From a virus (taxonomy: Duplodnaviria; Caudoviricetes): a stretch of 52,067 bases of DNA. Below the pieces are notes generated by a model that worked only from the letters and a program-made list of their open reading frames with translations, had not been told where the DNA came from and did not search any database. Of the stretch, positions 1,088 to 32,837 are shown in pieces; the stretch's first letter is position 1, and every line of letters starts with the position of its first letter. Made by a program: the position numbers and the translations under genes. Location: IMG/VR virus record IMGVR_UViG_3300034691_000021, positions 1-52,067 of that record. One strand, given 5' to 3'.

Positions 1088-1299
1088 ACACGAGCAATCA
1101 CGACCTCGCTACCGGCATGCTCGAAGGTTACGTCCAAAGCATGATTGATCCGCAGTGCAGCGCGGTCGCGGTTAAGGCATCAGCCAGTACCGCACTACTC
1201 ATCTTCCGCACGCTGAGCATCATCAGCGCCGAGGATGAAGCCTACTACACCGAGCGCTTGCGTCGAACCTTTGAGCATCGGCAAGGGAGAACAGCATGA
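1084..1299 (+). CDS. Hypothetical early protein
   Basis: AGGAGG RBS; coupled. Confidence 0.7.
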   Translation: MNTSNHDLATGMLEGYVQSMIDPQCSAVAVKASASTALLIFRTLSIISAEDEAYYTERLRRTFEHRQGRTA

Positions 1300-1430
1300 C
1301 CATCATCGTGAGAAACGCCAAAGCAATGACCGAAGCCCTGAATCGTCAGGGCTTTTTTCTGGTCGCTGATCTGCCTCAGCGCATCAAGGTTCAGACCCGG
1401 CGCGGCATGCTGGTTGTGAGGTTGCCGTGA
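1296..1430 (+). CDS. Small hypothetical protein, 44 aa (MTIIVRNAKAMTEALNRQGFFLVADLP...)
   Basis: Translated by hand; GGGAG RBS; ATGA/GTGA overlaps. Confidence 0.6.
   Translation: MTIIVRNAKAMTEALNRQGFFLVADLPQRIKVQTRRGMLVVRLP
1334..1358 (+). terminator. Intrinsic terminator lying inside the 1296-1430 ORF
   Basis: agccctga-atcg-tcagggct followed by a T tract. Confidence 0.55.
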
Positions 1431-1648
1431 TCGCCCAACAAGGTAATGGGTGGGCGATCTGTCACGACCAGGCCGGGATTCTTCTTTACACGGCCTGCGG
1501 AACTCGCTCAGTAGCTATCAAGCGATTTCTCGATATGTCTCATGGCAAGAACAACCACTCTTACGCCCACTGGCGCCGCGCTAAGCGTGAAGGCTGGCGC
1601 GCCTCTCATATCATCGTTGACGAGTTGATCTTTGGAGGTCAGCCATGA
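1427..1648 (+). CDS. Hypothetical early protein
   Basis: GTG start overlapping previous stop; GAGG RBS. Confidence 0.6.
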   Translation: MIAQQGNGWAICHDQAGILLYTACGTRSVAIKRFLDMSHGKNNHSYAHWRRAKREGWRASHIIVDELIFGGQP

Positions 1649-1779
1649 AATTCCAACTCGGAACCCGAATCTACACCTTCCAGGAGCTGATGAACCGAAT
1701 CGACATGGAGTTCTGGTCTGTCCATAAACACGGCCGCGAGCAGTACACCTTCGTTCCGGTTCAGTACAGGGGGAAATGA
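1645..1779 (+). CDS. Small hypothetical protein, 44 aa (MKFQLGTRIYTFQELMNRID...)
   Basis: Translated by hand; GGAGG RBS. Confidence 0.6.
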   Translation: MKFQLGTRIYTFQELMNRIDMEFWSVHKHGREQYTFVPVQYRGK

Positions 1780-1780
1780 G

Positions 1781-1900
1781 ATGAAACCACTCTTCTGGAT
1801 TCTCGCCTGCGGCCTGACGGTCGTCATGCTCCAGTACATGCTGTTCCAAGAGAACGGCTCTCCGAGGCAGATCAGCTTTCCTGTGGCGGTGGTGCGATGA
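1781..1900 (+). CDS. Small membrane protein, 39 aa (MKPLFWILACGLTVVMLQYMLF...)
   Basis: Translated by hand; single hydrophobic segment; coupled. Confidence 0.55.
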   Translation: MKPLFWILACGLTVVMLQYMLFQENGSPRQISFPVAVVR

Positions 1901-2283
1901 GCGAATTGTTCAGGTCTAGAAAGGATTTGGTCGTCAAGGTTTGGAATGCAGGCGATGACGACGAGCCCTTCATCTGCGCGGTGAATGGCGAGGCCACCAT
2001 CGATGCTCTGGCTGAGATCGAGGAAGAACTCAAGGGCGAGCATGAGTTCAGCAGCGGCCCCGGCGAATACGTTTACTGCGCCTGCTATGACCAAGGCGAA
2101 AGTGATGAATTCGGAAATGTTCTTTTCCGTCCGTATTGGGAGCTGACAGAAGTCTCTTTCGAAAAACCGGACTGGATGAGTATGTCGCATGAGCCCGACA
2201 AGCATGTGCCGCAGACCGGCGAGCCATGCACTGATTGCGGTTCGGCTTCCTGCTCATTCAAGCACAACTGCTTTCCATTCTGA
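1897..2283 (+). CDS. Acidic hypothetical protein with C-terminal Cys cluster
   Basis: ORF track; CTDCGSASC motif. Confidence 0.7.
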   Translation: MSELFRSRKDLVVKVWNAGDDDEPFICAVNGEATIDALAEIEEELKGEHEFSSGPGEYVYCACYDQGESDEFGNVLFRPYWELTEVSFEKPDWMSMSHEPDKHVPQTGEPCTDCGSASCSFKHNCFPF

Positions 2284-2292
2284 GGTGATGCC

Positions 2293-2409
2293 GTGACCAG
2301 CTATCAGCGCGCCAAGCGTATCTACATGCTCCGCGGCTCAGCCATCGTCCTCCTCGGCACTACCTTCGTAATGCTGGCCAGCGCCTACGTCGGTCAGCTC
2401 ACCCAATAA
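2293..2409 (+). CDS. Small membrane protein, 38 aa (MTSYQRAKRIYMLRGSAIVLLG...)
   Basis: GAGGTG RBS, GTG start; one TM segment. Confidence 0.55.
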   Translation: MTSYQRAKRIYMLRGSAIVLLGTTFVMLASAYVGQLTQ

Positions 2410-2449
2410 CTAGAACTCATACGCCGCCTGCATGGCGGAAGGAATCGTC

Positions 2450-3526
2450 ATGTCCACGCAAACTGAACTGGCCGTTGTTCCGCCGAAGGAAACAGCGCTG
2501 ACCGTATTCACCACAGAGAAGGGCCTCGAACCTTGGCTGCAAAAGATTCGCGCCGAGGTAGACGATTTCAACAAAGTCCTTCCAGAACTGACCACCCAGA
2601 AAGGCCGTGATCGCTACGCCTCGATGGCGCACAAGATCGCCAAGTCAAAGACTGCGCTGGAAGCCGTAGGCAAGGAGCTGTCCGCGCAACAGAAAGAGGT
2701 GCCAAAGCGCATCGACGCTGAACGTAAGCGCGTATGGGACACCCTGGAAGCTTGGCAGAAGGAAGTCCGCAAGCCGCTGGATGACTGGCAGGCAGCCGAA
2801 GACCGCCGGATTGACGCAATCAAGGCTGATATCGAGAAGATCAGTGATCACGCCATGCACACGGATGGCGTCACCGTTGCCGACCTTGAGGAACGCATTG
2901 CAAGGGTTGAAGCAGTTGTCATCGCAGACAAGTGGGCCGAGTTCCAAGTGGATGCAGCGTTGGCAAAAGAGAAAGCGCTGACAACCCTTTACACGGCCCT
3001 GACCAACCGCCAGCAGTACGAAGCCGAGCAGGCAGAGTTGGTGCGACTTCGTGAAGAAAAGGAAGCCCGCGAAAAGAAGGATAACGAGGACCGTATCGCT
3101 CGCGAAGCATCTGAACGCGCCACAAGGGAAGCCGAGGAAAAAGCTCGCGACGAGAAAGCCGCGGCAGAAAAGCGTGAAGCTGATCTGAAGCTGGCCGCTG
3201 CCGAGTCCGAGCGCAGGGCCGAGCAGGCAAAGCGTGAGCAGCTCGAAGCAGAACAAAAGGCCGAGGCTGACCGGCTGGGCGCCATCGAAAGCCAGAAGGC
3301 CGCAGTCGAGCAGGCCCGGCTGGATGAAATCGCGCGACAGCAGGCCGCAGCAGACGAGATCACCCGTCAGCAAAAAGAGCGCGAGGCCGACATGGCGCAT
3401 AAAGGCGTGGTAATGCGCGCAGCCAAAGAAGCCCTCATCAGTATGAATATCACCGAAGAACTGGCGAAAGCCATCGTCCTCAAGATTGCTCGGGGCGAAG
3501 TTCCAAACGTAACGATCAACTTCTGA
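2450..3526 (+). CDS. Long coiled-coil protein of the recombination module (DUF1351/TolA-like)
   Basis: E/A/R/K-rich heptads; position upstream of the recombinase ATPase. Confidence 0.75.
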   Translation: MSTQTELAVVPPKETALTVFTTEKGLEPWLQKIRAEVDDFNKVLPELTTQKGRDRYASMAHKIAKSKTALEAVGKELSAQQKEVPKRIDAERKRVWDTLEAWQKEVRKPLDDWQAAEDRRIDAIKADIEKISDHAMHTDGVTVADLEERIARVEAVVIADKWAEFQVDAALAKEKALTTLYTALTNRQQYEAEQAELVRLREEKEAREKKDNEDRIAREASERATREAEEKARDEKAAAEKREADLKLAAAESERRAEQAKREQLEAEQKAEADRLGAIESQKAAVEQARLDEIARQQAAADEITRQQKEREADMAHKGVVMRAAKEALISMNITEELAKAIVLKIARGEVPNVTINF

Positions 3527-3534
3527 GGTGCCGC

Positions 3535-3678
3535 ATGAACACGCCACGAATGGCCGCCCAGCTCGACTGGATGCAGGTCGGTGCGTTCTCGCCTGAGCGA
3601 TTCACTGGCGACCAACGCAAGGAATACGAAGACGAAGCCCGCCGCATACAGCGGCAGTGGGATAACCAACCAATCTGA
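3535..3678 (+). CDS. Small hypothetical protein, 47 aa (MNTPRMAAQLDWMQVGAFSPERF...)
   Basis: Translated by hand; GAGGTG RBS. Confidence 0.6.
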   Translation: MNTPRMAAQLDWMQVGAFSPERFTGDQRKEYEDEARRIQRQWDNQPI

Positions 3679-3689
3679 GGTAACTCGCA

Positions 3690-4556
3690 ATGTTCAAGAA
3701 AGCCGAACGCAAGCAGGCCAAGCTACGGCTGGCACTTGCTGGCCCATCAGGGTCTGGGAAAACCTACTCCGCACTGCTGCTCGCGACTGGCCTTGGCGGG
3801 CGAATCGCAGTCATCGATACCGAACATGGTAGTGCGTCCCTGTATGCCGATATCGCTGACTTTGACACGATGGAGTTGCACGCCCCTTATTCGCCAGAGC
3901 GATACATCGAAGCGATCGAAGCAGCTGAGCAGGCTGGATACGACACGCTGATCATCGACAGCTACTCGCATGAGTGGACAGGTTCAGGTGGCTGCCTTGA
4001 GTCAAACGAAGCTGTCGCCCACCAGAAATTCCGTGGCAACACTTGGGCGGCATGGAACGAAACCACCCCGCGCCATCGGAAACTGACAGACAAGATCCTG
4101 ACCAGCTCGCTGCACATCATATGCACCATGCGTAGCAAGACCGAAACCGTCCAGGGTGAGGGCAAAAAGATCCTCAAACTCGGAATGAAGTCCGAGCAGC
4201 GCGACGGGACTGATTATGAATTCACCGTAGTACTCGACCTGACTCATGACGGGCACACCGCGATGGCCAGCAAGGATCGGACGAAGCTGTTCGACCAGCC
4301 AGAGTTGATCAGCGAGGAAACTGGCAAGCGTCTACTGGCTTGGCTCAACTCCGGGGTCAGCCCAGAAGACCGGGCAAAAGAACTGCTAGTAGACGCGCTA
4401 GCTGACATCGCGGCAGCGGAGGACATGCCATCCCTGCACTCGGCGTTCAACGCCGCCAAGGTGATCGCGCTCGGCTTTGATGATCTGGTTCAACAGGTCG
4501 TTTTCGCCAAGGACAAACGCAAGGCTGAGTTGGACCCCGAGAGGAAGACAGCATGA
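3690..4556 (+). CDS. Sak4-like (AAA_24/RecA-fold) recombination ATPase
   Basis: Walker A GPSGSGKT, IDTE, Walker B LIIDS, YEF motif. Confidence 0.8.
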   Translation: MFKKAERKQAKLRLALAGPSGSGKTYSALLLATGLGGRIAVIDTEHGSASLYADIADFDTMELHAPYSPERYIEAIEAAEQAGYDTLIIDSYSHEWTGSGGCLESNEAVAHQKFRGNTWAAWNETTPRHRKLTDKILTSSLHIICTMRSKTETVQGEGKKILKLGMKSEQRDGTDYEFTVVLDLTHDGHTAMASKDRTKLFDQPELISEETGKRLLAWLNSGVSPEDRAKELLVDALADIAAAEDMPSLHSAFNAAKVIALGFDDLVQQVVFAKDKRKAELDPERKTA

Positions 4557-5263
4557 ACGCCTACATCAGCAACGATCTGAACATGGTCAAGGCACTCGAT
4601 CCTGACCGCCATGCACTGGCCCTGAAAATGGAGGCCTTCTTGAATAAGGGAGGGACTATTGAGGTCATCGGCATTGGTCGAAGCCTCTTCAGTCCGATCC
4701 CGTTCAATAGCGAGGTCTTCTCAGGATCGCCCAATGTCGCGCAACCCAAGCGCGATCTGTCGGTGAAGATCAAAAAGTCAGCCAAGGGAGAGGCCGAAGA
4801 GGCAGCGATTGCCGAGAAGCTGAAGGCCTACCACGACAGGGGTGTTGTGGCAGCGGCCAAGGATCTGCACATCAGCACTCGGCGCGCCAATCACATCGCA
4901 GCGCAGTACGGCGTCAAGTTCGCCTGCCGGGTATCGCTAGCGGCTCGCCAAGAGGATCTAGCACTGGTCCCGCAGATCCGCGCCCTGATTATTGAGGGCC
5001 TAACGCAGGACCAAATGTGCGCACGACTGCATATCGGTCGTACAACGCTGAAGCGCGTGGCTGGGCAGAACGGACTGAAGTTCCGCAGTCAGGCCGACCA
5101 TTCAAAAGACCTTGTGCTGGTCGAGCGCATCAAGGCCATCCGGGATATCGGCTGCACCCGAGCTGCCTGCGCCAGACAGCTCGATATCAACCCGAAGGTT
5201 CTGCTGCGACTGATCGCCGAGCATGAGATCGACTTTCCTGTCAGAACGCCGGGGGCCGCATGA
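4553..5263 (+). CDS. DNA-binding protein with three tandem HTH-like repeats
   Basis: Repeats AAKDLHISTRR / MCARLHIGRTT / CARQLDINPKV. Confidence 0.7.
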   Translation: MNAYISNDLNMVKALDPDRHALALKMEAFLNKGGTIEVIGIGRSLFSPIPFNSEVFSGSPNVAQPKRDLSVKIKKSAKGEAEEAAIAEKLKAYHDRGVVAAAKDLHISTRRANHIAAQYGVKFACRVSLAARQEDLALVPQIRALIIEGLTQDQMCARLHIGRTTLKRVAGQNGLKFRSQADHSKDLVLVERIKAIRDIGCTRAACARQLDINPKVLLRLIAEHEIDFPVRTPGAA

Positions 5264-5724
5264 GCAAGGTTCGCAAGCCTCACAGTCTCAAGAATCGCAT
5301 CGAACGGTCATGCCGGGCGCTGCTCAGTGCCAACCACGTCGCCGTGGTGAACATCGACCCCAGCGGCCGGCAGGGGATGATCAACTACAAGTCGTTCAAG
5401 AACATCGCGCCAGGAGAGATTGGTCAGGCTGTCTGCGGCATTCCTCACCGCTGGACCCTGTACCTGAGCGTCATGTGCCTGGATGCGCGCGGCGACCGCT
5501 ACACCAAATCGGTCGAAGTAGCGCCGGATGGCGTCTACCTGTCCGACCACCTCGCGGACGTAATCGAGCATTGCTACAAGGAACTGCGTGGCTCTGCCAA
5601 CCCGGCTCAGATGGTGGCTTCGGGCTGGATTGCCATACCGGAATCCGTATCGCTCGACGAGGCCCATGCGGCCCGAATATTCGAAGCGGTCGGCTGCTGG
5701 AATCAGCAGAAGGTCGCGGCATGA
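5260..5724 (+). CDS. Hypothetical early protein
   Basis: ORF track; coupled. Confidence 0.75.
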   Translation: MSKVRKPHSLKNRIERSCRALLSANHVAVVNIDPSGRQGMINYKSFKNIAPGEIGQAVCGIPHRWTLYLSVMCLDARGDRYTKSVEVAPDGVYLSDHLADVIEHCYKELRGSANPAQMVASGWIAIPESVSLDEAHAARIFEAVGCWNQQKVAA

Positions 5725-5805
5725 GGCGCATCAGCAATCAGGCGCGCGAACGCCGACGGCAAACATGGCTGGATCTGCCAGCCCACGGAATTGAAGAGGT
5801 GGATC

Positions 5806-6117
5806 ATGGCAGCGGAACAGAAAGCGCGCTCAGCCAAGACGGCACTCAAGCGCAAGGCTCGGGGCGAGGAAGAGATCAGGCTGCACTGCATGGCCGGCAC
5901 ACGCCAAGCACTCGCTGAATTGATGGCCTGGAACGGCATCGAGGAACAGGGCGAGGCCATCACGCTGATGATTCACCATCTTCATGCATTAGGGCCTCAA
6001 AAGTCCGCGCCACTGCTTACCGCCCCGCGACACGAAATAACCATCTCTGAATCGTTGCGCACAAAATTGCAGCTCGCCTACAACCGCGAAGCCCTGCGCA
6101 TCTGTCACGATGAATAA
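5806..6117 (+). CDS. Hypothetical protein, possible ribbon-helix-helix regulator
   Basis: GAGGTGG RBS before MAAEQK; basic N-terminus then strand-helix-helix pattern. Confidence 0.65.
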   Translation: MAAEQKARSAKTALKRKARGEEEIRLHCMAGTRQALAELMAWNGIEEQGEAITLMIHHLHALGPQKSAPLLTAPRHEITISESLRTKLQLAYNREALRICHDE

Positions 6118-6171
6118 CCCACTTTAACGAATCACGCCAGCCGGCGAGGCCATCTGGTGCGCGGAGGCTAA

Positions 6172-6402
6172 ATGAATGACTGGATCGCTTGTAGCGAAAA
6201 ACTGCCCGAGATCGATCTGGGCGCGCCGAAATACGCGCAGCGGGTTCGCGTCATAGCCGGCAATTCTCGATACGTCGGCGAGCTTGAATTCGGAACCAAC
6301 GCTTACGCAAAGAGGATTGACCCGCACTGGCAGGAAACGAGCGGGCGCGAGGCTGTATGGACACCAACCCACTGGATGCCGATGCCAAGCTGCCCAGTCT
6401 AA
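6172..6402 (+). CDS. DUF551-family protein
   Basis: WIACSEKLP...PTHWMPMP signature. Confidence 0.75.
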   Translation: MNDWIACSEKLPEIDLGAPKYAQRVRVIAGNSRYVGELEFGTNAYAKRIDPHWQETSGREAVWTPTHWMPMPSCPV

Positions 6403-6457
6403 CGAAACACCCTCGCACTACCCACCCCCAATCACCCTCACCCTTCCGGGAGGCCCT

Positions 6458-6601
6458 ATGTCATCCAAAGGAAAGCTCAAGGCTGGCTATTTGGAACTTG
6501 GATTCCGATGCGAGTACTGCGGGAATCCTCGGAGCCAGTGCCGAAACGACAAATGCTCCAAAGCCCGGCAGCGGGAACACGCACAGAGGAATGAGCCATG
6601 A
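6458..6601 (+). CDS. Small Cys-rich (Zn-binding) protein
   Basis: GGAGG RBS; CEYCG...C...C. Confidence 0.6.
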   Translation: MSSKGKLKAGYLELGFRCEYCGNPRSQCRNDKCSKARQREHAQRNEP

Positions 6602-7119
6602 CAGCCAAACTGTCGCCTGACTCGATCGGGCTGATTTTCACGATGAATGCAGCGGGGCATCCGGCAGATGAAATTGCCGATGCGGCGGGCTGCTCGTATC
6701 CGAACCTGCGTGCCGCCCGACTGGATGTCTGTCGTCTTGAGGCTCGCGAGCATGTAGTACGGAATGCAAACGATGAATTCCAATCCGAGCTGGCTTCGCT
6801 GCGGGAAGAGCTGGCCAAGCTCAAAGATGCCGCAAGGGTTGCAGGCGAAGTAGGCGCGCCGAACTTCCACGCAATGAAGCAGCGCCTTGCAGCCACCGAG
6901 CAGCGGAATGCGGCCCTCGAAAGCCTGATCCATCGCGCGCTGTTCTCGGAAGTAAATGACGGCTACGTTGACCGTTTTGCGGCAAGGGATGAATTGAAGG
7001 TTTTACTCAAGCCCACCGAATCGGGAGCAACCGAAAAGTGCTTGTCTGACGGCGGCACTTGCGGTCTCGGCGGCCAGTGCCATATGTGCCCGCACAAAGA
7101 ATCGGGAGCAAGCGAATGA
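6598..7119 (+). CDS. Mosaic hypothetical protein (HTH fragment + coiled coil + Cys-rich tail)
   Basis: EIADAAGCS HTH start; coiled coil; duplicated ESGA motif. Confidence 0.6.
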   Translation: MTAKLSPDSIGLIFTMNAAGHPADEIADAAGCSYPNLRAARLDVCRLEAREHVVRNANDEFQSELASLREELAKLKDAARVAGEVGAPNFHAMKQRLAATEQRNAALESLIHRALFSEVNDGYVDRFAARDELKVLLKPTESGATEKCLSDGGTCGLGGQCHMCPHKESGASE

Positions 7120-7169
7120 TCGCCCTCACCTGGTTCTACTGCGTGTACTGCCGCAAGGTGCCGAGATGA
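7116..7169 (+). CDS. 17-aa mini-ORF (MIALTWFYCVYCRKVPR)
   Basis: GGGAG RBS; ATGA overlap at both ends. Confidence 0.4.
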   Translation: MIALTWFYCVYCRKVPR

Positions 7170-7327
7170 CGCATCAACCGAAAGGCGGCATGTGTCGCAC
7201 CTGCGTCCACGCCCACCGCAATTGCAGCCACCTCCCCTTCAGCACCATGCCGGCGCTCGCCCGGGACGGCCAGACCGTTATCGTCCGATGCACTGACTTC
7301 CAGCGCCGCGCACAGCCTCAGTTGTAA
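7166..7327 (+). CDS. Small Cys-rich protein, 53 aa (MTHQPKGGMCRTC...VRCTDF)
   Basis: Translated by hand; AAGGTG RBS. Confidence 0.6.
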   Translation: MTHQPKGGMCRTCVHAHRNCSHLPFSTMPALARDGQTVIVRCTDFQRRAQPQL

Positions 7328-7378
7328 ACCCCTAATTGACAACTCAAGCCTGCCGGTGACTGCGGGCGAGGAATTCCT

Positions 7379-7873
7379 ATGCTCGATGCAAATATCCACC
7401 ACTCACTGAACGCACTCACTGCAAGCCAGCTGGCGAAGCTGCTCGTCATGCGCAAGGGGCTTGAGTTCGGCTACGCCTACACGTTCACCGATGATGATGG
7501 GCAGGACAGCAATATCGACAATGCTTTTCTGTCTGCTGCGCCGGGCGAACTACTCGACACCCTGTTCGACGAGAACGAGCATGACGACGCCATTAACGAG
7601 GTACGTTATGAGGCTGAAGACGTTCGCGGCATCCCTTCTTGGTGTCACTACAGCTGGGAGCGCAACTACGAGGTCGACGTGAAGGCCTTTATCTTGCCCG
7701 ATGGCCGAGCTCTTGCCTTTTGTGAGATGAGCGGCGGCGGAAAGCACGGGGAGCCAGACGCCTACCCTTGGGTTGACGAGGCCAAGTTCATCAAGGTCTC
7801 CGGCGTCGAAGAGCGCGTCATCAAGACTTACAAGTTTGAAGATATTCCAGAAGCCTCAGAGGTGACGGCATGA
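7379..7873 (+). CDS. Highly acidic hypothetical protein
   Basis: GAGGA RBS; D/E-rich. Confidence 0.75.
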   Translation: MLDANIHHSLNALTASQLAKLLVMRKGLEFGYAYTFTDDDGQDSNIDNAFLSAAPGELLDTLFDENEHDDAINEVRYEAEDVRGIPSWCHYSWERNYEVDVKAFILPDGRALAFCEMSGGGKHGEPDAYPWVDEAKFIKVSGVEERVIKTYKFEDIPEASEVTA

Positions 7874-7958
7874 TCTTCGCCCCTCTCTAGCACATCCTGC
7901 GCCACAACCAATTCTGACTACTCCCCTGCTTGCCGCCCCGCGCGGCCGGAGCATCCCT

Positions 7959-8153
7959 ATGTCTCGCATTGAAGAAAGAGAAGGCTGGAACCTGGCTGAT
8001 CAGTTGATCGAGGCCGGGCGCCAAGTAGATCAGCGATTCGGCGGCGTAGATCGCGTCATCGCCAACATTGAACAAACTGCCGCGCTCAGGCCAGAAGGCT
8101 ATCGGGCAGGCATCCAGAAACGCATCGAGGTGGAACGCCATGGCAACGTTTGA
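7959..8153 (+). CDS. Hypothetical early protein
   Basis: GGAG RBS. Confidence 0.65.
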   Translation: MSRIEEREGWNLADQLIEAGRQVDQRFGGVDRVIANIEQTAALRPEGYRAGIQKRIEVERHGNV

Positions 8154-8352
8154 TGTGCACGAACAGAACGCAGACGGTCGGCCGGGCAAGCTGCTCGACA
8201 CCATCGACCGCGTACCGGAAATCCATAAGTCGGGGACGTTTATCGAGTTCGATGGCGAACTTCAAAGAGTGTTCACCGGTATTCGCAATTTCATCATCGT
8301 CACCCAAGAGCGCTGGGCTCGGGTGTCGGCTGCAGCGTGGAGAAAGGTATGA
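8140..8352 (+). CDS. Hypothetical early protein (MATFDVHEQ...)
   Basis: GAGGTGG RBS. Confidence 0.6.
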   Translation: MATFDVHEQNADGRPGKLLDTIDRVPEIHKSGTFIEFDGELQRVFTGIRNFIIVTQERWARVSAAAWRKV

Positions 8353-8606
8353 AACACAAACTCTACTCCGGCTTGCAGGTTGGCAAAGTCACACTTATTC
8401 GAAGAGTTGAAGGCGAGAAAGGTCGCGGCCCGCGCTGGATCTGTCGCTGCGAATGCGGCGAAGAGATTGAGAAAAGCAGGGATACGCTTACAAATCCGGC
8501 TGTTGTCCAGCGCTGCAAAAGCTGTTTCGTGAAGTCGCAGCGAGCCTATTCGAACTTGCGAATTGCTACAGGCCTTCCTGCAAACCAATGGAGTGCGAAA
8601 CCATGA
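8349..8606 (+). CDS. Zn-ribbon protein (WxCxCxCG...CxxC, as in N-termini of phage HNH/AP2 proteins)
   Basis: WICRCECG and CKSC motifs. Confidence 0.65.
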   Translation: MKHKLYSGLQVGKVTLIRRVEGEKGRGPRWICRCECGEEIEKSRDTLTNPAVVQRCKSCFVKSQRAYSNLRIATGLPANQWSAKP

Positions 8607-9106
8607 GCGAAACCATGAGCGAACAAATGCGCGAAGAATTCGAGGTATGGGTTAAGAGTCTCTCCCCAAACCGATATCTATCTACAGAGCGATTCTGTCC
8701 GCTTCATGGTGTGACCGAAGGTGAATACAAAGGCTTCACCGTCCAGAACTGCTGGGAGTCGTTTCAGGCAGCGCGCAAGACTGGCTTCACCGCCGTCGAC
8801 ATGGGCACCGCAGAGGCTGACGGGTTCAGGGATGGGGCGGCTAGCCATTGGCAGCCGATAGATACCTGCCCCAAGCACGTCGACGTCCTGTTCTTCCATG
8901 AGCGCGATGGCGTGATCGCTGGCCGCCTGACCGATGCCGATTCCTTCATGACCGATAAAGAGCGCGATGAGTTTGAGGGTGGCGATGAGGCCCAGTTCTG
9001 CATCGACGCGTTCGGCTTTGGGCACTGGGGTGTTTGCCGCATGGATGGCGCTGAAGCGCCGTCGCACTGGATGCCATACCCACCAGAGCCTGAGGTGAAG
9101 CCATGA
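8603..9106 (+). CDS. Mosaic protein with C-terminal DUF551-like domain
   Basis: WQPIDTCPK...PSHWMPYPPEP. Confidence 0.7.
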   Translation: MSETMSEQMREEFEVWVKSLSPNRYLSTERFCPLHGVTEGEYKGFTVQNCWESFQAARKTGFTAVDMGTAEADGFRDGAASHWQPIDTCPKHVDVLFFHERDGVIAGRLTDADSFMTDKERDEFEGGDEAQFCIDAFGFGHWGVCRMDGAEAPSHWMPYPPEPEVKP

Positions 9107-9345
9107 CCAACTACAGCAACCTAAAGCGATTGGCCGATGCCGCCCCGATGGCCATGACCATGACGAATGGCGGCGAAGAGCATAAGGCGCTGACTGCCTT
9201 CACGGACGAGGTAAAGCGCCTATTTGGGAATGATGTCGGCATGGCAAGGGTGTTGATCGCTGAGAACGAGGCGCTGCGCAAGGAATGCGCCCTGCTCAAA
9301 GCTGACAATCAAGCGCTGCTGGAACACCCAGAGGACGCACTATGA
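9103..9345 (+). CDS. Ead/Ea22-like coiled-coil protein
   Basis: YSNLKRLA...LIAENEALRKE pattern. Confidence 0.55.
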   Translation: MTNYSNLKRLADAAPMAMTMTNGGEEHKALTAFTDEVKRLFGNDVGMARVLIAENEALRKECALLKADNQALLEHPEDAL

Positions 9346-9836
9346 GCAAGCCAGAAGCTGACTCGCAGCCAACAACAGGCCACGCAATTCCGCAATGGCT
9401 GCGCGACCAATTCGACGCTATCGAGCTGCAAGTCAGAAAGATGGGCGCCGAGGCCGTATTCACCCAGATGCGCACGAAGGTGCAGGCCTACTTTGAAATG
9501 CTGCGATCGGTAGAGAGCGGCAGGGCCGGTAGAGATCTAGCCATCATCACCCAGCAGAAGAACCTGATTTCTTCCTTGCGCGAAGATCTGCGGGAAGCAA
9601 TCGCCATTGATTGCAGCGATGACGTAATTGAAGCCTGCGCCGAAGTTGAGCGCACCGGCACGCCCGGCAGCGTGATTCGCGAGATGAACGATGAGCTGGT
9701 AGATCTGCGCAGAGACGCTGAGCGCTTCCGATTCATCGAGCAGGACGCCGACTCTGGCATGCGCTGGATCTACGGTGATGACTGGATAGCCGTAATTGAT
9801 GCCACTGGCTTTCAGGCCATGAGCAAGGAGGGTTGA
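9342..9836 (+). CDS. Hypothetical protein
   Basis: LRRDAERFRFI motif common in lambdoid ea-region genes. Confidence 0.65.
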   Translation: MSKPEADSQPTTGHAIPQWLRDQFDAIELQVRKMGAEAVFTQMRTKVQAYFEMLRSVESGRAGRDLAIITQQKNLISSLREDLREAIAIDCSDDVIEACAEVERTGTPGSVIREMNDELVDLRRDAERFRFIEQDADSGMRWIYGDDWIAVIDATGFQAMSKEG

Positions 9837-13626: not shown

Positions 13627-14553
13627 TTATGACAGCCTGTCTGTAACAGACAATAAAACCTTTGAGGATTTAACCTCTACATCATCCACAAGCAACTTAC
13701 AGACTTCAATAGCTGTATGTCCGCCACAGGAAATAACTACCGCGTCGGGTCGCCTAGAAAGAACCTGCCCTGGCGTCCCAAAATAAATACCGTCAAACAC
13801 CTGAGAATCAACAAACCTTATTTTTTTATTGTTGATATGTGAATATGCGCATGGGTATGGCGGCGATTGCGCACGGATGAAATTGTGAACATCAACAGCA
13901 TTCAGACTCCAATCAACTAGCCCGTCAACCTCAGTGCGCTGGCCGCAATAGGTGGCCTCGCTATCGTCCTGACTGAAAATCCTGGCCTCGCAAGAGATCA
14001 GCTTTACCCACTTATCAGGAAGCTCCTCGATCAGTCTGCCCTCTATCTTTTTGAGCACGGAGCCCACATTATCTTCAGCAAGTACCTCAACCTTGACCTG
14101 ATGCAAAACATCCCCATCGTCCATTCCTTCAGATATTTTGAAGACACTACTTCCAGCGTACTTGTCTCCATTCAAGATTGACCAAACCAGCGGCGCACCA
14201 CCTCGATATTTTGGCAATATCGAGTTGTGCACCCCCCACAACCCATTCGGAACAAGTCCAATAGTTTCGCTATCAATAAGCCAATACCACCCACATACGA
14301 ATCCAATGTCAGGCGCAAAATCAATGACCATTTGTTTTGCGGCTGCAGGAGATGCAGCTACCAAAAGATCGATATCGCACAACCGAGCAAAATTCTGAAA
14401 CTCAGTCAGTGCAGACCTCGGATCATTTGAGTCATCTGGATGTATAATTATCCAGCGCATTGATTGCGATACGCTGTAAATAGACTTAAACACAGAAAGC
14501 CCGAGTGCCTTGGAGCCTATAAAGACAGCTGTCAATTTAATATCAATAGACAT
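13627..14553 (-). CDS. N10-formyl-THF-dependent formyltransferase (Fmt/ArnA-like, probably sugar N-formyltransferase)
   Basis: HNSILPKYRGGAP, MDDGD, C-domain IRAQSPPYPCAYS; AT-rich. Confidence 0.85.
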   Translation of the reverse strand: MSIDIKLTAVFIGSKALGLSVFKSIYSVSQSMRWIIIHPDDSNDPRSALTEFQNFARLCDIDLLVAASPAAAKQMVIDFAPDIGFVCGWYWLIDSETIGLVPNGLWGVHNSILPKYRGGAPLVWSILNGDKYAGSSVFKISEGMDDGDVLHQVKVEVLAEDNVGSVLKKIEGRLIEELPDKWVKLISCEARIFSQDDSEATYCGQRTEVDGLVDWSLNAVDVHNFIRAQSPPYPCAYSHINNKKIRFVDSQVFDGIYFGTPGQVLSRRPDAVVISCGGHTAIEVCKLLVDDVEVKSSKVLLSVTDRLS

Positions 14554-28308: not shown

Positions 28309-28694
28309 TTTCTGGCCTGCACGCTGAAGCCGACGTTGAGGCCGGCGTAATTCCAGGGCTCGACGTTCTGCACCGTGTAGGTGTCGCCGTCGAACAGGAT
28401 CTTGTCTTGGCTGACTGGCTTGGGCATGTCGGCACCAGTCAGTAGTACCGGGGAGATCAGCAGCTTGACGTCGCCTCGCTTGATCAGCGTTCCGTCAATA
28501 TCGCTGCTCTTGTAGTTCTCGCGGACGCCTGAGCCATCGAACTGGTCTGGGGTTGTCGGCATATTCCCGGAGTCAGGGTCATAGTCGCCTGAGGTGACGC
28601 GGATCAATGACAACTCCAGCCCTTTTCCGCCCTTGCTGCGCGGAGCCAGCAGCCTGATCGCCATGACCTTGGCTCGATCATAGATGTCGGTCAT
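28305..28694 (-). CDS. Head-closure / head-tail joining protein
   Basis: IDGTLIKRGD motif; synteny. Confidence 0.75.
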   Translation of the reverse strand: MTDIYDRAKVMAIRLLAPRSKGGKGLELSLIRVTSGDYDPDSGNMPTTPDQFDGSGVRENYKSSDIDGTLIKRGDVKLLISPVLLTGADMPKPVSQDKILFDGDTYTVQNVEPWNYAGLNVGFSVQARK

Positions 28695-29197
28695 GAGCGC
28701 ACCATGGAAATGCTGCTGCTCGATCCGTCGATGAACTGGGCCATCATCTTGTCAGTCTGGCGGTAACGAACCACGCCATTACTGTCCATGTATTCGGTTT
28801 TCAGTGGGCCGACGGTTTCGGACTTGATGATCCGGTCTACGTCCTGATCAAGCTCGCCTTGCCCGGCCTTGAAGGCCATTTCGGCACAGGTCTGGGCCAT
28901 TGGATTCGGCACCGCATCGCTCGGCCAGTATTCGCATCGGCCACTGTCCTTGCGGCGCGCCTCGTAGCGGGGCCACGACAGCGCCTGAGTCGAGTTGACC
29001 CGATAGCCGCAGAAGCGCATGCCGTAGGTACGCTCGATGTAGTCCGTGCCTCTACGCAGCGCCTGCTCTTTCTCGGTCGTGCTCAGTGCAGCCCAGATCG
29101 TGTTGCCGCGGGCGTCGTGATAGGCGTCGGCGTAGCTGACCGAGCACAGGGACTCAGCATCCGCGCGCCCGGTGCCATCTTCAACAATGAGTGCCAT
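28691..29197 (-). CDS. Head-tail adaptor (often annotated DnaT-like)
   Basis: MALIVEDGTG, QALSWPR, ETVGPLKTEY. Confidence 0.8.
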   Translation of the reverse strand: MALIVEDGTGRADAESLCSVSYADAYHDARGNTIWAALSTTEKEQALRRGTDYIERTYGMRFCGYRVNSTQALSWPRYEARRKDSGRCEYWPSDAVPNPMAQTCAEMAFKAGQGELDQDVDRIIKSETVGPLKTEYMDSNGVVRYRQTDKMMAQFIDGSSSSISMVRS

Positions 29198-29200
29198 GTG

Positions 29201-30253
29201 CTACCCCAGCGGGAAAGGTTGTGTTTGCCCGACGAGCGGACGCGTGTTCGTTTGGCCGTTGAGCGGATAGACCTGCTCCTGTCCGGCAAGCGGCAGGGTT
29301 TGGGTCAGTCCATGCAGTGGATAGGCCTGAGTCAGCCCATCAAGCGGATGATGTCGAGCGGTGGCGTCGGTGCCGGTCGCGTTTCCGTCAGCAGGATCAA
29401 ACGACACTTCGTCGATGGTGCCGGTCGTTACCGCTGAACCCGACACACTGGTCGCCGGCGCCGTGAAGATGATCGGCACGAATGATCCATTGGCCGATAC
29501 CGAAGGCAGTGCCGAACCTGTGGGAGCGGACAGCCCCATAAAGGCCGGAGAAACAGACTTAGACGCGCCACCTAGAGCAGTTGCACCTGTGGGAGCGAGT
29601 GTGATCGATGCAGGCGCTGCCGAGGCGTTGCCGCCTGCCGATGTACTGCCAGAGGCTGAGGCATTCGGCGCGGCCTGGGTGACGCTGGCCATCGAGGCCG
29701 ATACGCCTGCCGAGCCAGCACCAGACACAGCCGGCGAATTCAGCGACACAAAAGCGATGGCCGCAGATCGTGTCGCGGATCCGTTTCCGATTGCAGTTGG
29801 CGCGCTCGTCGTGATCGCAGCAGGAGCCGCAGACCGTGAGGCGCTACCAGTGGCAGTCGATGCAGGAGCAGACAGCGCCAGCGAATCAACAGCAGCACTG
29901 ATGGACGCATTCGCAGTCCCGGCAGCCGTACCGATTAAAACCGACAGCGATACTGCGGCAAATGATCCGCTCGCCTCAGCATCAGGTGTCCCGGCTCCCT
30001 CGGCCGAAGCGTCAGGCGCGGCAAGCGTCACCTCAGCAAATGCGCCAGAGGCCACAACATCATCCACGCCTTCAGCGACAGCATCCGGAGCAGACATGGA
30101 CACTGAAGCCAGGCTGCCGAACGCATCCGGACCCTCGGCCCGCCAGAATTCGCCAGCGATCAATGATGGCGTCTGGCTTTCAAGCCGCTGCGTCACCAGA
30201 TCCGTCGTAGTCAGCCTGCCCGAAGGCGCAAACCTCCAAGCATTAAAGGCCAT
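29201..30253 (-). CDS. Ala/Ser-rich repeat protein, putative virion appendage scaffold
   Basis: 11 ~19-aa repeats plus five C-terminal 9-aa PLxG repeats. Confidence 0.7.
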   Translation of the reverse strand: MAFNAWRFAPSGRLTTTDLVTQRLESQTPSLIAGEFWRAEGPDAFGSLASVSMSAPDAVAEGVDDVVASGAFAEVTLAAPDASAEGAGTPDAEASGSFAAVSLSVLIGTAAGTANASISAAVDSLALSAPASTATGSASRSAAPAAITTSAPTAIGNGSATRSAAIAFVSLNSPAVSGAGSAGVSASMASVTQAAPNASASGSTSAGGNASAAPASITLAPTGATALGGASKSVSPAFMGLSAPTGSALPSVSANGSFVPIIFTAPATSVSGSAVTTGTIDEVSFDPADGNATGTDATARHHPLDGLTQAYPLHGLTQTLPLAGQEQVYPLNGQTNTRPLVGQTQPFPLG

Positions 30254-30257
30254 GGGA

Positions 30258-31055
30258 TCACCCGTTTACGACTTCAATCGTCATGTCGAAGATGCCGGTC
30301 GCCGTGCTGTCAGGCGTGACGATCGCCATCAAGGCGCTGTCCGCAAAGATCTGCGGCATGCCTGTCTTCAGGAAGTCGTGCGTGTCGCCGAAGTTGGCAG
30401 CCATCACACGACCAGACCAGAGGCGGCGCAACACCAGGACGTTGAATGTCCCGGCAGATGATACCGAGCTGGTGATCGACTCAATGGTCCGGACGCCGGT
30501 GTCGCCCGACTGAAGAGGCAGCTGAACCATTCGGCCGACAATCGGTGCGGCACCGGTGGCAATCGTGCCGGTCGTGCGGCCCGTTGTCCCGGACTGGTTC
30601 GTGTAGGTCACCACGATACTTTGGTTGCCCGTGAACGCCGTTACCGCCTCGATCCAGACCTCTGTGTTGGTGAAGTCCGTGCCGCCAATCACCCGGCCCG
30701 AATAGCTGGGCTGAACTGACAGCGTGGTCGAGGAGTTGAACGCATACGCGCCAGCCTTCCACAGGCAATCGAACAGCGTGATGCGGCAAGGCACCGTGCT
30801 GCCGAAGGAGATGTTGCTGATGTAGCCCGTATTGCCGCCGCCGAACGCGTTGATGACCGGAAAGCCGGCCGTCGCATCAGTAGGTACAATGCCTGCCGTG
30901 GTGTTCGTCCCGGCCAACGTACCCGCGCCCGGGTTGCCAGCCGCCTGAATCACCTGGGTAGGCATCAGCGCAACCGCCGTCACCGACGCCGTCTTGGTGA
31001 TCTGCACCCGCTGCGAGGCGGCAGCGATATAGCCGTCAAGCGTCGTAATAGCCAT
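30258..31055 (-). CDS. Beta-rich putative virion appendage/tip protein
   Basis: Thr/Gly-rich all-beta pattern; in the head operon. Confidence 0.7.
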   Translation of the reverse strand: MAITTLDGYIAAASQRVQITKTASVTAVALMPTQVIQAAGNPGAGTLAGTNTTAGIVPTDATAGFPVINAFGGGNTGYISNISFGSTVPCRITLFDCLWKAGAYAFNSSTTLSVQPSYSGRVIGGTDFTNTEVWIEAVTAFTGNQSIVVTYTNQSGTTGRTTGTIATGAAPIVGRMVQLPLQSGDTGVRTIESITSSVSSAGTFNVLVLRRLWSGRVMAANFGDTHDFLKTGMPQIFADSALMAIVTPDSTATGIFDMTIEVVNG

Positions 31056-31063
31056 CAGATCAC

Positions 31064-31483
31064 CTAGCGGTTGACGTAGAGCGGAGAGGACAGCGTCACG
31101 GTAAACGTGCCCGCCGTGCTGGTGACGGTGCCGCCGAAGTCCACGAAGGTGACCAGCTCGTCAGTAGCAGCAGTGCCGACCGACTTGTAGATCCAGGCAC
31201 CGACGGCCGAAATGGTCGCCGAGGTGAAGGCTGCAGGGTTGCCGAAGGTCACCGCCACGCGGTTGTTCGACGTATCGACTGAGCCGACAGTGCACGTTAC
31301 CGTCGCGCCGCCCGTTGCGTACGAGCCTGAGGCCGCCACTTCAGTGACGATATCGTTGCGGAAGTCGAAGGTGTCCAGCTCAGTCTCGGACGGAACCGCC
31401 GAAACCAGCAGCATCTTGAACGTGCCGGAGAAGTAGGCATCAGCCATACGCTTCGGGAGGAATAGCGAATTCGCTGATGCCAT
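31064..31483 (-). CDS. Small beta-sandwich virion protein (appendage subunit)
   Basis: TFKMLLV...EVAASGSYATGG...VDFGG.VTST.GTFTV pattern resembling phage minor structural proteins. Confidence 0.7.
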   Translation of the reverse strand: MASANSLFLPKRMADAYFSGTFKMLLVSAVPSETELDTFDFRNDIVTEVAASGSYATGGATVTCTVGSVDTSNNRVAVTFGNPAAFTSATISAVGAWIYKSVGTAATDELVTFVDFGGTVTSTAGTFTVTLSSPLYVNR

Positions 31484-31486
31484 GAC

Positions 31487-31654
31487 TTATACCTCTTTCC
31501 AGCCGAGCAGTCGGTGCGCGGCCAAACAGGTCGGATGCACCATTAGGGTTTCGCCGTCTTTGCATACGGCAATCAGGTGACTTTCATCCGCCTGATTTGA
31601 ATTCTCGTCAGCGGCAGCCTTGGCGGCGCGCTGTTCTTTCGTCAGACCAGCCAT
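31487..31654 (-). CDS. 55-aa protein after the capsid gene (MAGLTKEQRAAK...VHPTCLAAHRLLGWKEV)
   Basis: Translated by hand; AGGAG RBS. Confidence 0.65.
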   Translation of the reverse strand: MAGLTKEQRAAKAAADENSNQADESHLIAVCKDGETLMVHPTCLAAHRLLGWKEV

Positions 31655-31672: not shown

Positions 31673-31690
31673 CAGGGGCCGAAGCCCCTG
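31673..31690 (-). terminator. Hairpin after the major capsid gene
   Basis: caggggc-ttcg-gcccctg (UUCG loop on - strand); weak U tract. Confidence 0.5.
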
Positions 31691-31706: not shown

Positions 31707-32837
31707 TCAGCCCAGAACCAAGCACACGTGCTCGGATTGAACCACTTTGAAGCCCCAGGCCAGGTGCAGCTCCCAGGTGGTCTGACCGTACTGCTGGATT
31801 TGCAGCAGCAGGTAGGTCATGCCGTTCTGATCGCTGATCAGCATCTGGTCGATGGTGGCGTTGTCCGGCATTGCTGGCGGACGCATGATGCCGACGACAG
31901 CGCTACGTTCGAACGCGAGGTTCGGTGCGTAGTTGTTGCCGACGGTCATGGCGTTGGCGGTCGGGATCACGATGCGAGCACCAGGACGGCCGAGGCTGAC
32001 AGTGCCAGGAGCAGCAACACCGTTGTTGATGACGTACTTGTTGGTCGAGTCGGCCGCGAAGGTCACAACGTCGCCCGGCAGAGCGGTGCCGGTGCCAGTC
32101 ACCAGAGCGATGTCGCGCACGCCAATAGCAGTCGAGCCGCTGGTGACGTAGGAAGCGCCAGTACCCTTGGTGTGGGTGGTGATGCCGGCCGATTCGGTGA
32201 TAGCGAAACCGAACTGACGCAGCAGGCGACCGCTACGGCGCTCTTCGTCGCTACCAGCCTGATAGGCCTGTTGGATGATGCCGAGCTTGCGGGCAGCAAC
32301 ACCAGCGCTCGAATCGATGCACATCTGCAGGTCAGCCAGAGGCGCGCCGTTGTCCAGCAACACCTTGCGCGCGTCGGCGATGATGTTGATGTCAGTGGCG
32401 AACGGGTTGGTGCCGGCGGTGCCTACGGCGCGGGATGCGCCCTGCTTGATGGCAGCGGCGCAGTCAGCTTCTGCCAGGTTGCGCAGCGAGCGCATGCCCT
32501 GGGCAACGAGTTGGCGAACCCATTCGTTGTCAGTGCCGCCGTTTTGCAGGCTTTGCAGCTGCTCGCCGGTCATGTGCCAGCTGACTTTCTTCGAGGCGGT
32601 GATCGCCACGTCGACGCTGGTTGCAGTCGCATCATCGCCAGCCGCTGCAGCAACGCCAGGGGCGAAGTCAGTCGGAGTACGGGATGGTGCAACAGGCACC
32701 TTGACAGTGTCACCTTTGGCGACTTTCTTGTCGTCGAAGTTGGCACTGATCGAACTGATTACCCCGAACGCTTCGTTCGAGACTTCTTGGGCAGCCGAGT
32801 ACAGTACCGGCTGCAATGCGGTGAGAACGTTTGCCAT
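31707..32837 (-). CDS. Major capsid protein (P22 coat-like, HK97 fold)
   Basis: 376 aa after scaffold; GDTVKVPVAP, LAWGFKVV...LG. Confidence 0.88.
   Translation of the reverse strand: MANVLTALQPVLYSAAQEVSNEAFGVISSISANFDDKKVAKGDTVKVPVAPSRTPTDFAPGVAAAAGDDATATSVDVAITASKKVSWHMTGEQLQSLQNGGTDNEWVRQLVAQGMRSLRNLAEADCAAAIKQGASRAVGTAGTNPFATDINIIADARKVLLDNGAPLADLQMCIDSSAGVAARKLGIIQQAYQAGSDEERRSGRLLRQFGFAITESAGITTHTKGTGASYVTSGSTAIGVRDIALVTGTGTALPGDVVTFAADSTNKYVINNGVAAPGTVSLGRPGARIVIPTANAMTVGNNYAPNLAFERSAVVGIMRPPAMPDNATIDQMLISDQNGMTYLLLQIQQYGQTTWELHLAWGFKVVQSEHVCLVLG

Follow-up and report, generated by a model that had tools for sequence, protein, structure and literature searches.

To our knowledge, chain-like phage fibres are represented by a handful of cryo-electron microscopy (cryo-EM) structures from 2023 (the year to which we date that of GP4) to 2026, all of them on the tails or necks of podophages and myophages. 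The bead-on-rope design itself is already known, as the 'chain-like fibre' or 'collar-whisker' of phages GP4, VP1, A1002, Bas63 and Sf14. Here we describe a module of four open reading frames (ORFs) of 55, 139, 265 and 350 amino acids (aa), located at positions 29201-31654 of the IMG/VR record IMGVR_UViG_3300034691_000021, a 52,067-bp stretch of viral DNA that was analysed at its full length and is called the window below. We propose, with a probability of roughly 65% for the bead-on-rope core, that the 139-, 265- and 350-aa genes encode a chain-like virion fibre. What is new here is a separate rope gene in a siphophage head block, a conserved N-terminal anchor on the rope, and a widespread 265-aa partner protein.

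The whisker monomer of Bas63 is built from an N-terminal helix, a small sheet and an 'incomplete sandwich'; its dimers are arranged 'like beads on a string', and a rope lying in their grooves completes the sandwiches (PMC12609058). In GP4 the rope is longer, is encoded by a gene of its own and holds five Fiber-1 dimers (PMC12609058, PMC13730344), and the nozzle-rope protein gp39 of A1002 offers 11 docking sites for fibre dimers, each engaged through an augmented beta-sheet (PMC13730344). The bead proteins are small: 147 aa for A1002 gp40, 171 aa for A1002 gp41, 140 aa for GP4 gp80 and 160 aa for VP1 gp11 (PMC13730344). The gene table of Sf14 lists the portal as gp29, the whiskers as gp30 and gp31, the decoration protein as gp33 and the capsid as gp34 (PMC11821841), and the whisker genes of that phage therefore lie in its head block. 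Phage 7-7-1 has homodimeric 'garland' proteins, gp014, around its tail fibres (PMC12796354).

In the arrangement that we propose for the window, the 350-aa protein would be an extended rope, each of whose approximately 11 repeats (~23 aa) gives a strand and a loop, and a pair of 139-aa beads would clasp each repeat by beta-sheet augmentation. With one bead pair per repeat, the number of repeats would set both the bead count (~22) and the length of the fibre, which would come to ~30 nm at ~27 Å per dimer, a spacing derived from the ~300 Å rope and 11 dimers of A1002. The N-terminal ~40 aa of the rope would bind the 265-aa jelly roll as an end piece at that terminus, as co-variation and a natural fusion protein (P0261, below) suggest, and a lineage-specific C-terminal tail would dock the fibre on the particle, at the neck or head. 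By analogy with what has been proposed for GP4 Fiber I and for the phiCbK filament, the fibre probably makes an initial, reversible contact with cells or surfaces. In silico support comes from the repeats, the bead fold, the interface between a bead pair and a repeat, the co-variation of rope and bead, and the head-block context.

Rope repeats, bead fold and predicted complex

The 350-aa protein (29201-30253, minus strand, as for all features of the module and its flanks given below) is rich in Ala, Ser, Gly and Thr and was divided by repeat analysis into three parts. Residues 1-40 (30134-30253) form the N-terminal anchor, with a W-R-x-x-P-S-G-R ... F-W motif that emerged from an alignment of the ORFs found downstream of 265-aa genes. 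Residues 44-300 (29354-30124) hold 11 repeats of 20-26 aa, the predicted docking sites of the bead pairs, and residues 301-350 (29204-29353) hold six 9-aa 'PLxG' units, visible as self-similarity at lag 9 and lag 18. The anchor motif and the 'PLxG' units had not been listed in the original prediction. The original prediction had reported 11 repeats in this protein, and they are confirmed: autocorrelation with BLOSUM62 against 500 shuffles gave z = 6.6 for lag 22 and z = 5.1 for lag 24, the period recurring in multiples at lags 44-50 (z 3.2-3.7), and all five of the example peptides that had been quoted are present. A Smith-Waterman comparison of one half of the rope with the other scored 136, against 71 +/- 9 for shuffled sequences, none of 300 of which scored as high. 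Tandem Repeats Finder detected no tandem array matching these repeats at the DNA level, and the repetition is one of protein sequence only.

Three related loci (L008, L009 and L012) encode ropes of 325 aa that lack one 23-aa unit and therefore have 10 repeats to the window's 11, which answers an earlier suggestion to compare repeat counts across relatives. The 'PLxG' tail is invariant across these three and the window. Between lineages the C-terminal tails are wholly different, consisting of short strand-like repeats, basic tails, or acidic helices with terminal Leu runs. A tblastn search of the rope against phages gave no match, and the sole match of a word-index search was P0001 (457 aa, NCBI source), in which repeats of the window's type (period 24 and 48, z 4.8 and 6.6) come after an N-terminal half that is different and looks globular; this repeat type has therefore also been joined to other heads. 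Other rope relatives, found later through gene neighbourhood, were probably missed by the word index owing to low-complexity words.

The 139-aa protein (31064-31483; phrog_644) was modelled with AlphaFold2 (AF2) from a 28-row alignment as a single domain with a helix at residues 9-17 followed by strands, at a predicted local distance difference test score (pLDDT) of 94.4 and a predicted template modelling score (pTM) of 0.87. When this model was compared with ~48,000 PDB representatives using VIA-align, the seven top matches were all phage virion chains: Sf14 neck 9c39_K (Z 9.0, root-mean-square deviation (rmsd) 3.0, 107 of 108 residues), KP1 9f4a_AY (Z 7.9), the Bxb1 'tail wing arm gp31' 9d93_Ra (Z 7.8), phi812 9euf_b (Z 7.6), HFTV1 9h4p_BD (Z 6.9), 7-7-1 9rkv_A (Z 6.8), which from its size we infer to be the garland protein gp014, and GP4 Fiber I 8jou_a (Z 6.6). 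The next chain, at rank 8, is unrelated, and Z drops to 3.9. Foldseek retrieved four Bas63 connector chains (9mt4) at probabilities of 0.92-1.0 and template modelling (TM) scores of 0.44-0.64.

An iterative hidden Markov model (HMM) search over the ORFs of related loci linked the 139-aa type, by way of bridging sequences (in L026, E 4.8e-10; L013b, E 4.6e-5; and L017, E 5.6e-5), with another subfamily of larger size. The 19-member profile of the joined family, which includes the window's protein, matched GP4 Fiber I (8jou_a) over residues 1-138 of 140 at E 2.2e-9. Membership of the 139-aa protein in the bead family, which comprises 881 clusters at 90% identity, thus rests on fold and on transitive sequence links, and the direct link is weak.

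We predicted the complex of two copies of the 139-aa protein (alignment A2) with rope residues 112-165, which span two repeats (alignment A3, 4 rows). Three runs gave interaction scores (ipSAE) of 0.62, 0.70 and 0.66 (median 0.66), while the best of three controls reached 0.23; the pass mark used is one that 58 of 80 solved complexes and 2 of 110 mismatched pairs reach. Contact agreement among runs was at least 62% and the partner pLDDT at least 55. In the model, both bead copies touch rope residues 112-139, exactly one repeat, with bead residues 2-5, 9-10, 75, 80, 91, 95-98 and 112-139 on their side of the interface and the tightest contacts between bead residues 112-135 and rope residues 115-122. 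Taken at face value, the model would place one bead pair on each repeat, and 11 repeats would therefore carry ~22 beads.

The idea that a repeat strand completes the 139-aa beta protein, with the repeats serving as a ruler, was part of the original prediction and is supported in silico by the fold, by this complex (akin to a check then proposed) and by the co-variation described below. The stoichiometry given with it, one 139-aa copy per repeat or 11:1, gives way to two per repeat, or ~22:1, in the model.

Related loci and co-variation

A search with the 265-aa protein (30258-31055) returned 41 IMG/VR loci, three of which end right at the 265-aa gene, leaving 38 with an ORF after it. That ORF has a best lag of 18-24 aa with z of at least 4 in 25 of the 38 loci, although the repeat sequences of one lineage bear no relation to those of another; the complete ropes measure 187 to 1236 aa. 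Outside this range of period or z fall L007 (lag 8, z 8.2), L021 (lag 10, z 4.9), L022 (lag 20, z 3.0) and L023 (lag 20, z 3.6). A second 265-aa copy comes next in L025, L032 and L033, followed by a periodic protein in L033 (lag 22, z 8.8) and L025 (lag 21, z 4.2), and no periodic neighbour stands directly after the 265-aa gene in L026, L027, L029, L030, L034 and L039. A strict HMM of the anchor (first 38 residues) matched 19 of the 38 loci; 17 of these were its seeds, and L007 and L015 were new.

For 18 cassettes with a bead, a 265-aa protein and a rope, pairwise similarities were compared by Spearman correlation with 2000 permutations (Mantel tests). Similarity of the rope repeats tracks that of the beads (r 0.57, with none of the 2000 permutations as high), and a partial correlation of 0.50 is left when the 265-aa protein is accounted for. 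Similarity of the anchor tracks that of the 265-aa protein (r 0.52, 18 of 2000 permutations as high; partial 0.47 given the bead) and does not track the bead (partial 0.18 given the 265-aa protein). Individual combinations are also instructive: the 265-aa protein of the window is closest to that of L005 (score ratio 0.85), whose bead and rope are of the other class, and in L006 a 265-aa protein of the L007/L011/L013 type (0.92-0.94) is combined with a bead and rope of the window's type. Both are therefore individual cases of shuffling.

We compared 13 structural proteins of the window with 40 of the loci, L007, which gave no match at all, being left out since its 265-aa ORF was not called. In these 40 loci, identity to the window's 265-aa protein is 45-82%, and by blastp at E<1e-5 this protein is the sole match among the 13 in 35 of them. 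The exceptions are L008, L009 and L012, which have the backbone of the window, L006 (bead and rope) and L033 (bead). Only L008, L009 and L012 share that backbone, with Ad1 85-89% and the tail terminator 81-94% identical.

Small ORFs of 90-112 aa, beta-rich in appearance, stand right after the rope in L002, L007, L010, L011, L014, L015, L020, L038 and L041; some form families (L002/L003/L011, L007/L010 and L020/L038), and PHROGs gives no function for these ORFs of ~100 aa. They could be collar or anchor proteins, of which none was recognised in the window. In L004, L013 and L017-L020 a small conserved ORF of 62-97 aa lies between a bead-sized ORF and the 265-aa gene, where the window has none. 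PHROGs assigns these ORFs to no family, and the bead-sized ORFs beside them match the bead HMM in L013, L017 and L020 only.

The 265-aa protein

The AF2 model of the 265-aa protein (pLDDT 93.1, pTM 0.91) is a jelly-roll sandwich with long insertions. Its PDB matches all lie below Z 8 and include nucleoplasmin (7.7), PHM (7.5) and TNF/C1q proteins (6-7), and, among virion proteins, the PRD1 vertex protein P5 (Z 6.5), the Pam1 cement protein 7eel_H (6.3) and KHP40 7dou (5.9). Matches at this level would indicate a generic jelly roll. The same holds for the capsid cement or decoration class (Pam1, KHP40 and BPP-1 type), against which the model scores Z 5.9-6.3, within the generic jelly-roll range; conservation of the protein across unrelated capsid families makes a cement or decoration role less likely. 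Foldseek against the PDB gave weak whole-chain matches to birnavirus and geminivirus capsid proteins at an rmsd of ~20 Å, which we likewise read as generic jelly roll.

No match was found in Pfam or PHROGs, and profile searches of the PDB with alignment A1 of this protein returned nothing. BFVD holds seven unnamed phage proteins of the same fold (E 1e-12 to 1e-19). The family as a whole comprises 2885 clusters at 90% identity and 3351 representatives at 50%, none with a name or a Pfam domain. No named phage record that was searched contained the anchor or the 265-aa partner; three uncultured records matched. The resemblance of a 'KAGAY' stretch to an alginate-lyase motif was dropped, no lyase having appeared in any search. 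Invariant charged residues are D96, R121, E136, D185, R210 and D249.

Seven proteins of unusual length were read among the 150 best representatives of the family. P0261 is a natural fusion of a 265-aa domain with a region of 20-aa period (z 5.7), and therefore supports a physical link of the 265-aa protein to the N-terminal side of the ropes. P0349 carries Ig-like repeats and P0368 and P0323 carry SPRY/ConA-like modules, all assigned by eye from sequence; these additions suggest surface exposure. According to the match table, P0242 (541 aa) consists of two 265-aa copies fused head-to-tail, and two adjacent homologues occur in L025, L032 and L033. Such tandem and fused copies hint at a hetero- or pseudo-oligomer.

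Members of the family also occur, at 40-66% identity, in contigs assigned to Alpha- and Betaproteobacteria, Bacteroidota, Acidobacteriota, Zixibacteria, Planctomycetota and Syntrophia, assignments that may be wrong where phage contigs take their host from metagenome-assembled genomes (MAGs). A homologue is also present on a 227-kb contig of the isolate Novosphingobium aquae AS3R-12, in a prophage locus (L050) made up of a 146-aa ORF, a 264-aa protein and a 970-aa rope of period 22 (z 15.2). Eleven cross-phylum loci were analysed, of which eight have a periodic neighbour (best lag 18-22, z 5.0-18) and five a detectable bead. This conservation across phyla argues against a host-specific adhesin; the original prediction had suggested that the protein could cap the fibre as an adhesin. 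It is possible that it acts as a stopper, as an assembly nucleus, or as the binder of a common ligand.

Genomic context and position on the particle

Pfam and PHROGs scans identify the minus strand of the window as a siphophage structural block, in a record whose completeness CheckV puts at 94%. The block runs from terminase through portal (phrog_145), MuF-like head morphogenesis protein, scaffold (phrog_206) and capsid (phrog_283) to the four-ORF module, and continues with Ad1 (PF20557), Hc1, Neck1, tail terminator, major tail protein, tape measure and tail tip. The module is flanked upstream by the major capsid gene (31707-32837; phrog_283, E 1.3e-65) and downstream by that of the head-tail adaptor Ad1 (28691-29197; PF20557, E 1.2e-43; phrog_477, E 2.4e-45). 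Four packed ORFs between capsid and adaptor genes had been predicted, and this is what we found: the four share the minus strand, and from the 55-aa ORF through to Ad1 the gaps measure 3, 8, 4 and 3 nt.

None of the four has a Pfam match, and PHROGs returned unnamed families only. A blastn search of the module region against phages matched the capsid gene alone (two Synechococcus phages, 68%), and the ESM Atlas gave unnamed viral clusters only. The 55-aa ORF (31487-31654), first after the capsid gene, belongs to phrog_1514 (function unknown; E 1.3e-6); a 56-aa ORF stands at the equivalent position in L008 and L009, and no related locus gave a blastp match at E<1e-5.

Head genes of unrelated lineages surround the cassette in all five related loci scanned with PHROGs (10 neighbour proteins). 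The order in L011 is portal, bead, 265-aa gene, rope, 94-aa ORF and protease-capsid fusion, and L041 follows it, with a 178-aa ORF that does not match the bead HMM at the bead position. L021 reads portal, 264-aa gene, repeat protein, scaffold and capsid; L036 reads capsid, 124-aa, 261-aa and repeat protein; and L002 reads 265-aa gene, rope, 102-aa ORF and Hc3. This context suggests a fibre on the head or neck. For the capsid-vertex appendage that the original prediction envisaged, the gene context points to head or neck and no more closely to a vertex.

A role as a tail fibre was set aside because the window has its own lambda-like tail tip set, in a tail module that is complete and separate (J, I, K/L-like, M-like, tape measure). 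Since the 265-aa protein does not co-vary with capsid or neck proteins and the C-terminal rope tails do differ, the tail would be the virion-proximal end; since the N-terminus of the rope is the free end in A1002 and Bas63, the anchor and the 265-aa protein would sit at the far end. We put forward this polarity, with a distal N-terminal anchor, a docking C-terminal tail and the 265-aa protein as end piece, only tentatively.

Some further observations concern the surroundings of the module. A promoter scan of the window found none, and all five terminator-like sites called are on the plus strand, opposite to the module. Between the capsid gene and the 55-aa ORF, 17 nt past the capsid stop codon, lies a GC-rich hairpin (31673-31690, minus strand) with a 7-bp stem, a TTCG loop and a T-rich stretch after it. 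This hairpin was not called in the consensus scan; it may act as an attenuator, reducing expression of the genes after the capsid gene. Neck and tail genes of L008, L009 and L012 are 67-94% identical to those of the window, while their capsid is 35-36% and their scaffold 53-54% identical, and an exchange of the capsid gene has apparently taken place inside a single phage lineage. An unexpected neighbour of the tail-fibre genes is a 308-aa ORF (13627-14553, minus strand) resembling phosphoribosylglycinamide formyltransferase (phrog_9240, E 1.4e-19).

A possible counterpart in phage phiCbK

Bead relatives among named cultured phages were found in the phiCbK group only, in 38 records (35 Caulobacter, 2 Bertelyvirus and 1 Brevundimonas). 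By tblastn the window's bead is 39-42% identical to those of the group (E 5e-4 to 2e-3), and gp75 of phiCbK (138 aa), its closest relative from a cultured phage, scores 63.8 bits with the bead HMM. The gp75 gene lies directly upstream of that of gp76 (2799 aa), a few genes past scaffold and capsid, at positions 759-1175 and 1250-9649, respectively, of the stretch analysed (L044; NC_019405.1, 36300-52000). Residues 1700-2560 of gp76 are periodic at lag 22 (z 6.6), lag 24 (z 5.4) and lag 46 (z 5.3), which would make ~37 units, and units such as G-x-I-G-T-I-x-V-x-x-P are recognisable by eye. With an HMM built on the 11 repeats of the window, gp76 scored no better than shuffled sequences (-59 bits against a shuffle mean of -8.9); the period and visual inspection are therefore the grounds for the likeness.

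Differences are that gp76 has Gly-rich and ConA-like domains ahead of its repeats and, by eye, no N-terminal anchor motif. No homologue of the 265-aa protein was found among gp74-gp77.

Gill et al. (2012; PMC3556154) name gp76 as the likeliest protein of the phiCbK head filament (~200 nm) and report it as undetected in virions. A literature search, thin on subscription papers, found no later identification of the filament. From the homology of gp75 to the bead and the period of gp76, the head filament of phiCbK may therefore be a bead-rope fibre. A broader picture, to which we give somewhat less than even odds, would have a mobile bead/265-aa/rope cassette, present in thousands of uncultured phages and in prophage contigs assigned to several bacterial phyla, build fibres on phage heads or necks, their length set by the repeats, the 265-aa protein and anchor forming a new, universally conserved terminal unit, and the phiCbK filament as a giant version with gp75 pairs on ~37 gp76 repeats.

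Alternative explanations and implications

Several points weigh against a bead-on-rope fibre in the window. The virus is an uncultured IMG/VR record, and the fibre is a prediction from its genes; no Ig-like collar, adaptor or anchor protein was recognised in the window with Pfam or PHROGs. The assignment of the 139-aa protein to the bead class (~105-170 aa, N-terminal helix, incomplete beta-sandwich) was made by fold score. A profile of the 139-aa type alone (A2) found no solved relative, with nothing below E 1.4, and reached a probability of 3% against the GP4-like subfamily in hhalign; with the bridging members added (A5), Bxb1 gp31 matched at E 0.0097 only. The complex prediction used a rope alignment of only 4 rows, with alignments and chain numbers unlike those of the calibration set, and its passing score may reflect likeness to the solved complexes of GP4, Bas63, Sf14 and A1002. 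The Mantel tests leave shared ancestry in, and 4 of the 18 cassettes are close relatives. Lastly, a bead homologue could be detected in no more than 19 of the 41 loci, in 15 of which it stands immediately before the 265-aa gene, and single-sequence hhalign in 16 of the 22 loci lacking a bead HMM match found no bead, the best probability being 20%.

The absence of a detected bead homologue from 22 of the 41 loci would also suit a quite different assembly, in which the 350-aa protein is an autonomous, probably trimeric beta fibre (a triple beta-spiral or solenoid) and the 139-aa protein an unrelated decoration or neck protein. Adenovirus-type triple beta-spiral fibres are homotrimers with ~15-aa shaft repeats and a terminal knob. 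The rope repeats, each an alternating-hydrophobic strand followed by Pro and Gly, may resemble those shaft repeats, and the 265-aa fold resembles trimeric TNF/C1q-type knobs at Z 6-7. We nevertheless regard an autonomous fibre as improbable, given that the matches of the bead fold are to proteins assembling on ropes or fibres, that the predicted complex of bead pair and repeat passes its controls, and that the co-variation of rope repeats and bead persists when the 265-aa protein is accounted for, as L006 illustrates. Still less probable, in our estimation, is a non-virion cassette, with the 265-aa protein or all three proteins acting in assembly or in the infected cell as a chaperone or enzyme. 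The unusually high conservation that the 265-aa protein keeps among unrelated phages and phyla would be more usual in an enzyme, and its invariant charged residues point the same way; against this, neither sequence nor profile searches place it in an enzyme family, head genes surround the cassette in every locus scanned, seven solved phage structures contain bead relatives as virion proteins, and the Ig-like and SPRY/ConA-like additions seen by eye on its variants suggest surface exposure.

The alternative closest to our proposal keeps the fibre and reverses its polarity. The 265-aa jelly roll would then be a virion-proximal base at a vertex, a threefold site or the neck, similar to a penton base or cement protein, into which the N-terminal anchor plugs while the variable C-terminus points outward. 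Its jelly-roll matches include the Pam1 and KHP40 cement proteins and the PRD1 vertex protein P5, tandem 265-aa copies occur in L025, L032 and L033, and in adenovirus a conserved N-terminal fibre tail likewise binds the base, according to PMC12796354. However, a base docking on the capsid or neck should co-vary with it, and the 265-aa protein is the sole shared structural protein in 35 of 40 loci and keeps 40-66% identity across phyla; every one of the jelly-roll matches is below Z 8 and generic; and in A1002 and Bas63 the rope N-terminus is free. We therefore consider reversed polarity unlikely, though it is the least unlikely of these alternatives.

If the 139-aa protein and the rope do form a chain-like fibre, the design is far commoner than the solved structures suggest, going by the 881 bead clusters (at 90%) and 3351 representatives of the 265-aa family (at 50%), and is also encoded in siphophage head blocks. 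It would be an exchangeable cassette with ropes of 187 to 1236 aa, and such fibres could be recognised in metagenomes by a small bead gene beside a protein with an 18-24 aa period. The locus also raises the questions of what the strikingly conserved 265-aa partner does and whether the phiCbK filament is a gp75/gp76 bead-rope assembly.

Comparison with known fibre systems

Chaperone-usher pili resemble the proposed fibre in that an incomplete beta fold is completed by a strand of another polypeptide. There, each subunit contributes an N-terminal strand of its own to the subunit that follows, whereas in the window one rope would supply and count all the strands; there is no homology and no usher.

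Among phage systems, the collar-whiskers of Bas63 and Sf14 provide the best structural matches of the 139-aa model, and the whisker genes of Sf14 adjoin the portal in the head block, as the cassette does in L011 (by PHROGs) and in L007 (by size and position only). The rope in these phages is a short N-terminal extension of an Ig-like collar protein that carries two dimers, and the beads, at ~107 aa, have no detectable sequence similarity to the 139-aa protein (8% identity). In A1002 (gp39 with gp40/gp41), the likeness lies in the 11 bead-dimer docking sites formed by augmented beta-sheets and in the free rope N-terminus (PMC13730344), and also in the spacing, since by our arithmetic ~330 aa of fibre-dock residues shared among 11 dimers come close to the 23 aa per repeat of the window. 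Its rope differs in being the N-terminal part of the nozzle protein and in ending in an Ig-like domain, and its fibre uses two bead proteins and wraps the tail tube.

The chain-like fibre of GP4 (Fiber I gp80, 8JOU) shares with the window a bead of ~140 aa with the bead-family fold, linked by profile homology at E 2.2e-9, and a rope that is a separate gene product with serial dimers. The GP4 fibre sits on a podophage tail through an Ig-like adaptor and has five dimers, whereas that proposed for the window is encoded in a siphophage head block and has 11 repeats, a conserved N-terminal anchor and a 265-aa jelly-roll partner.

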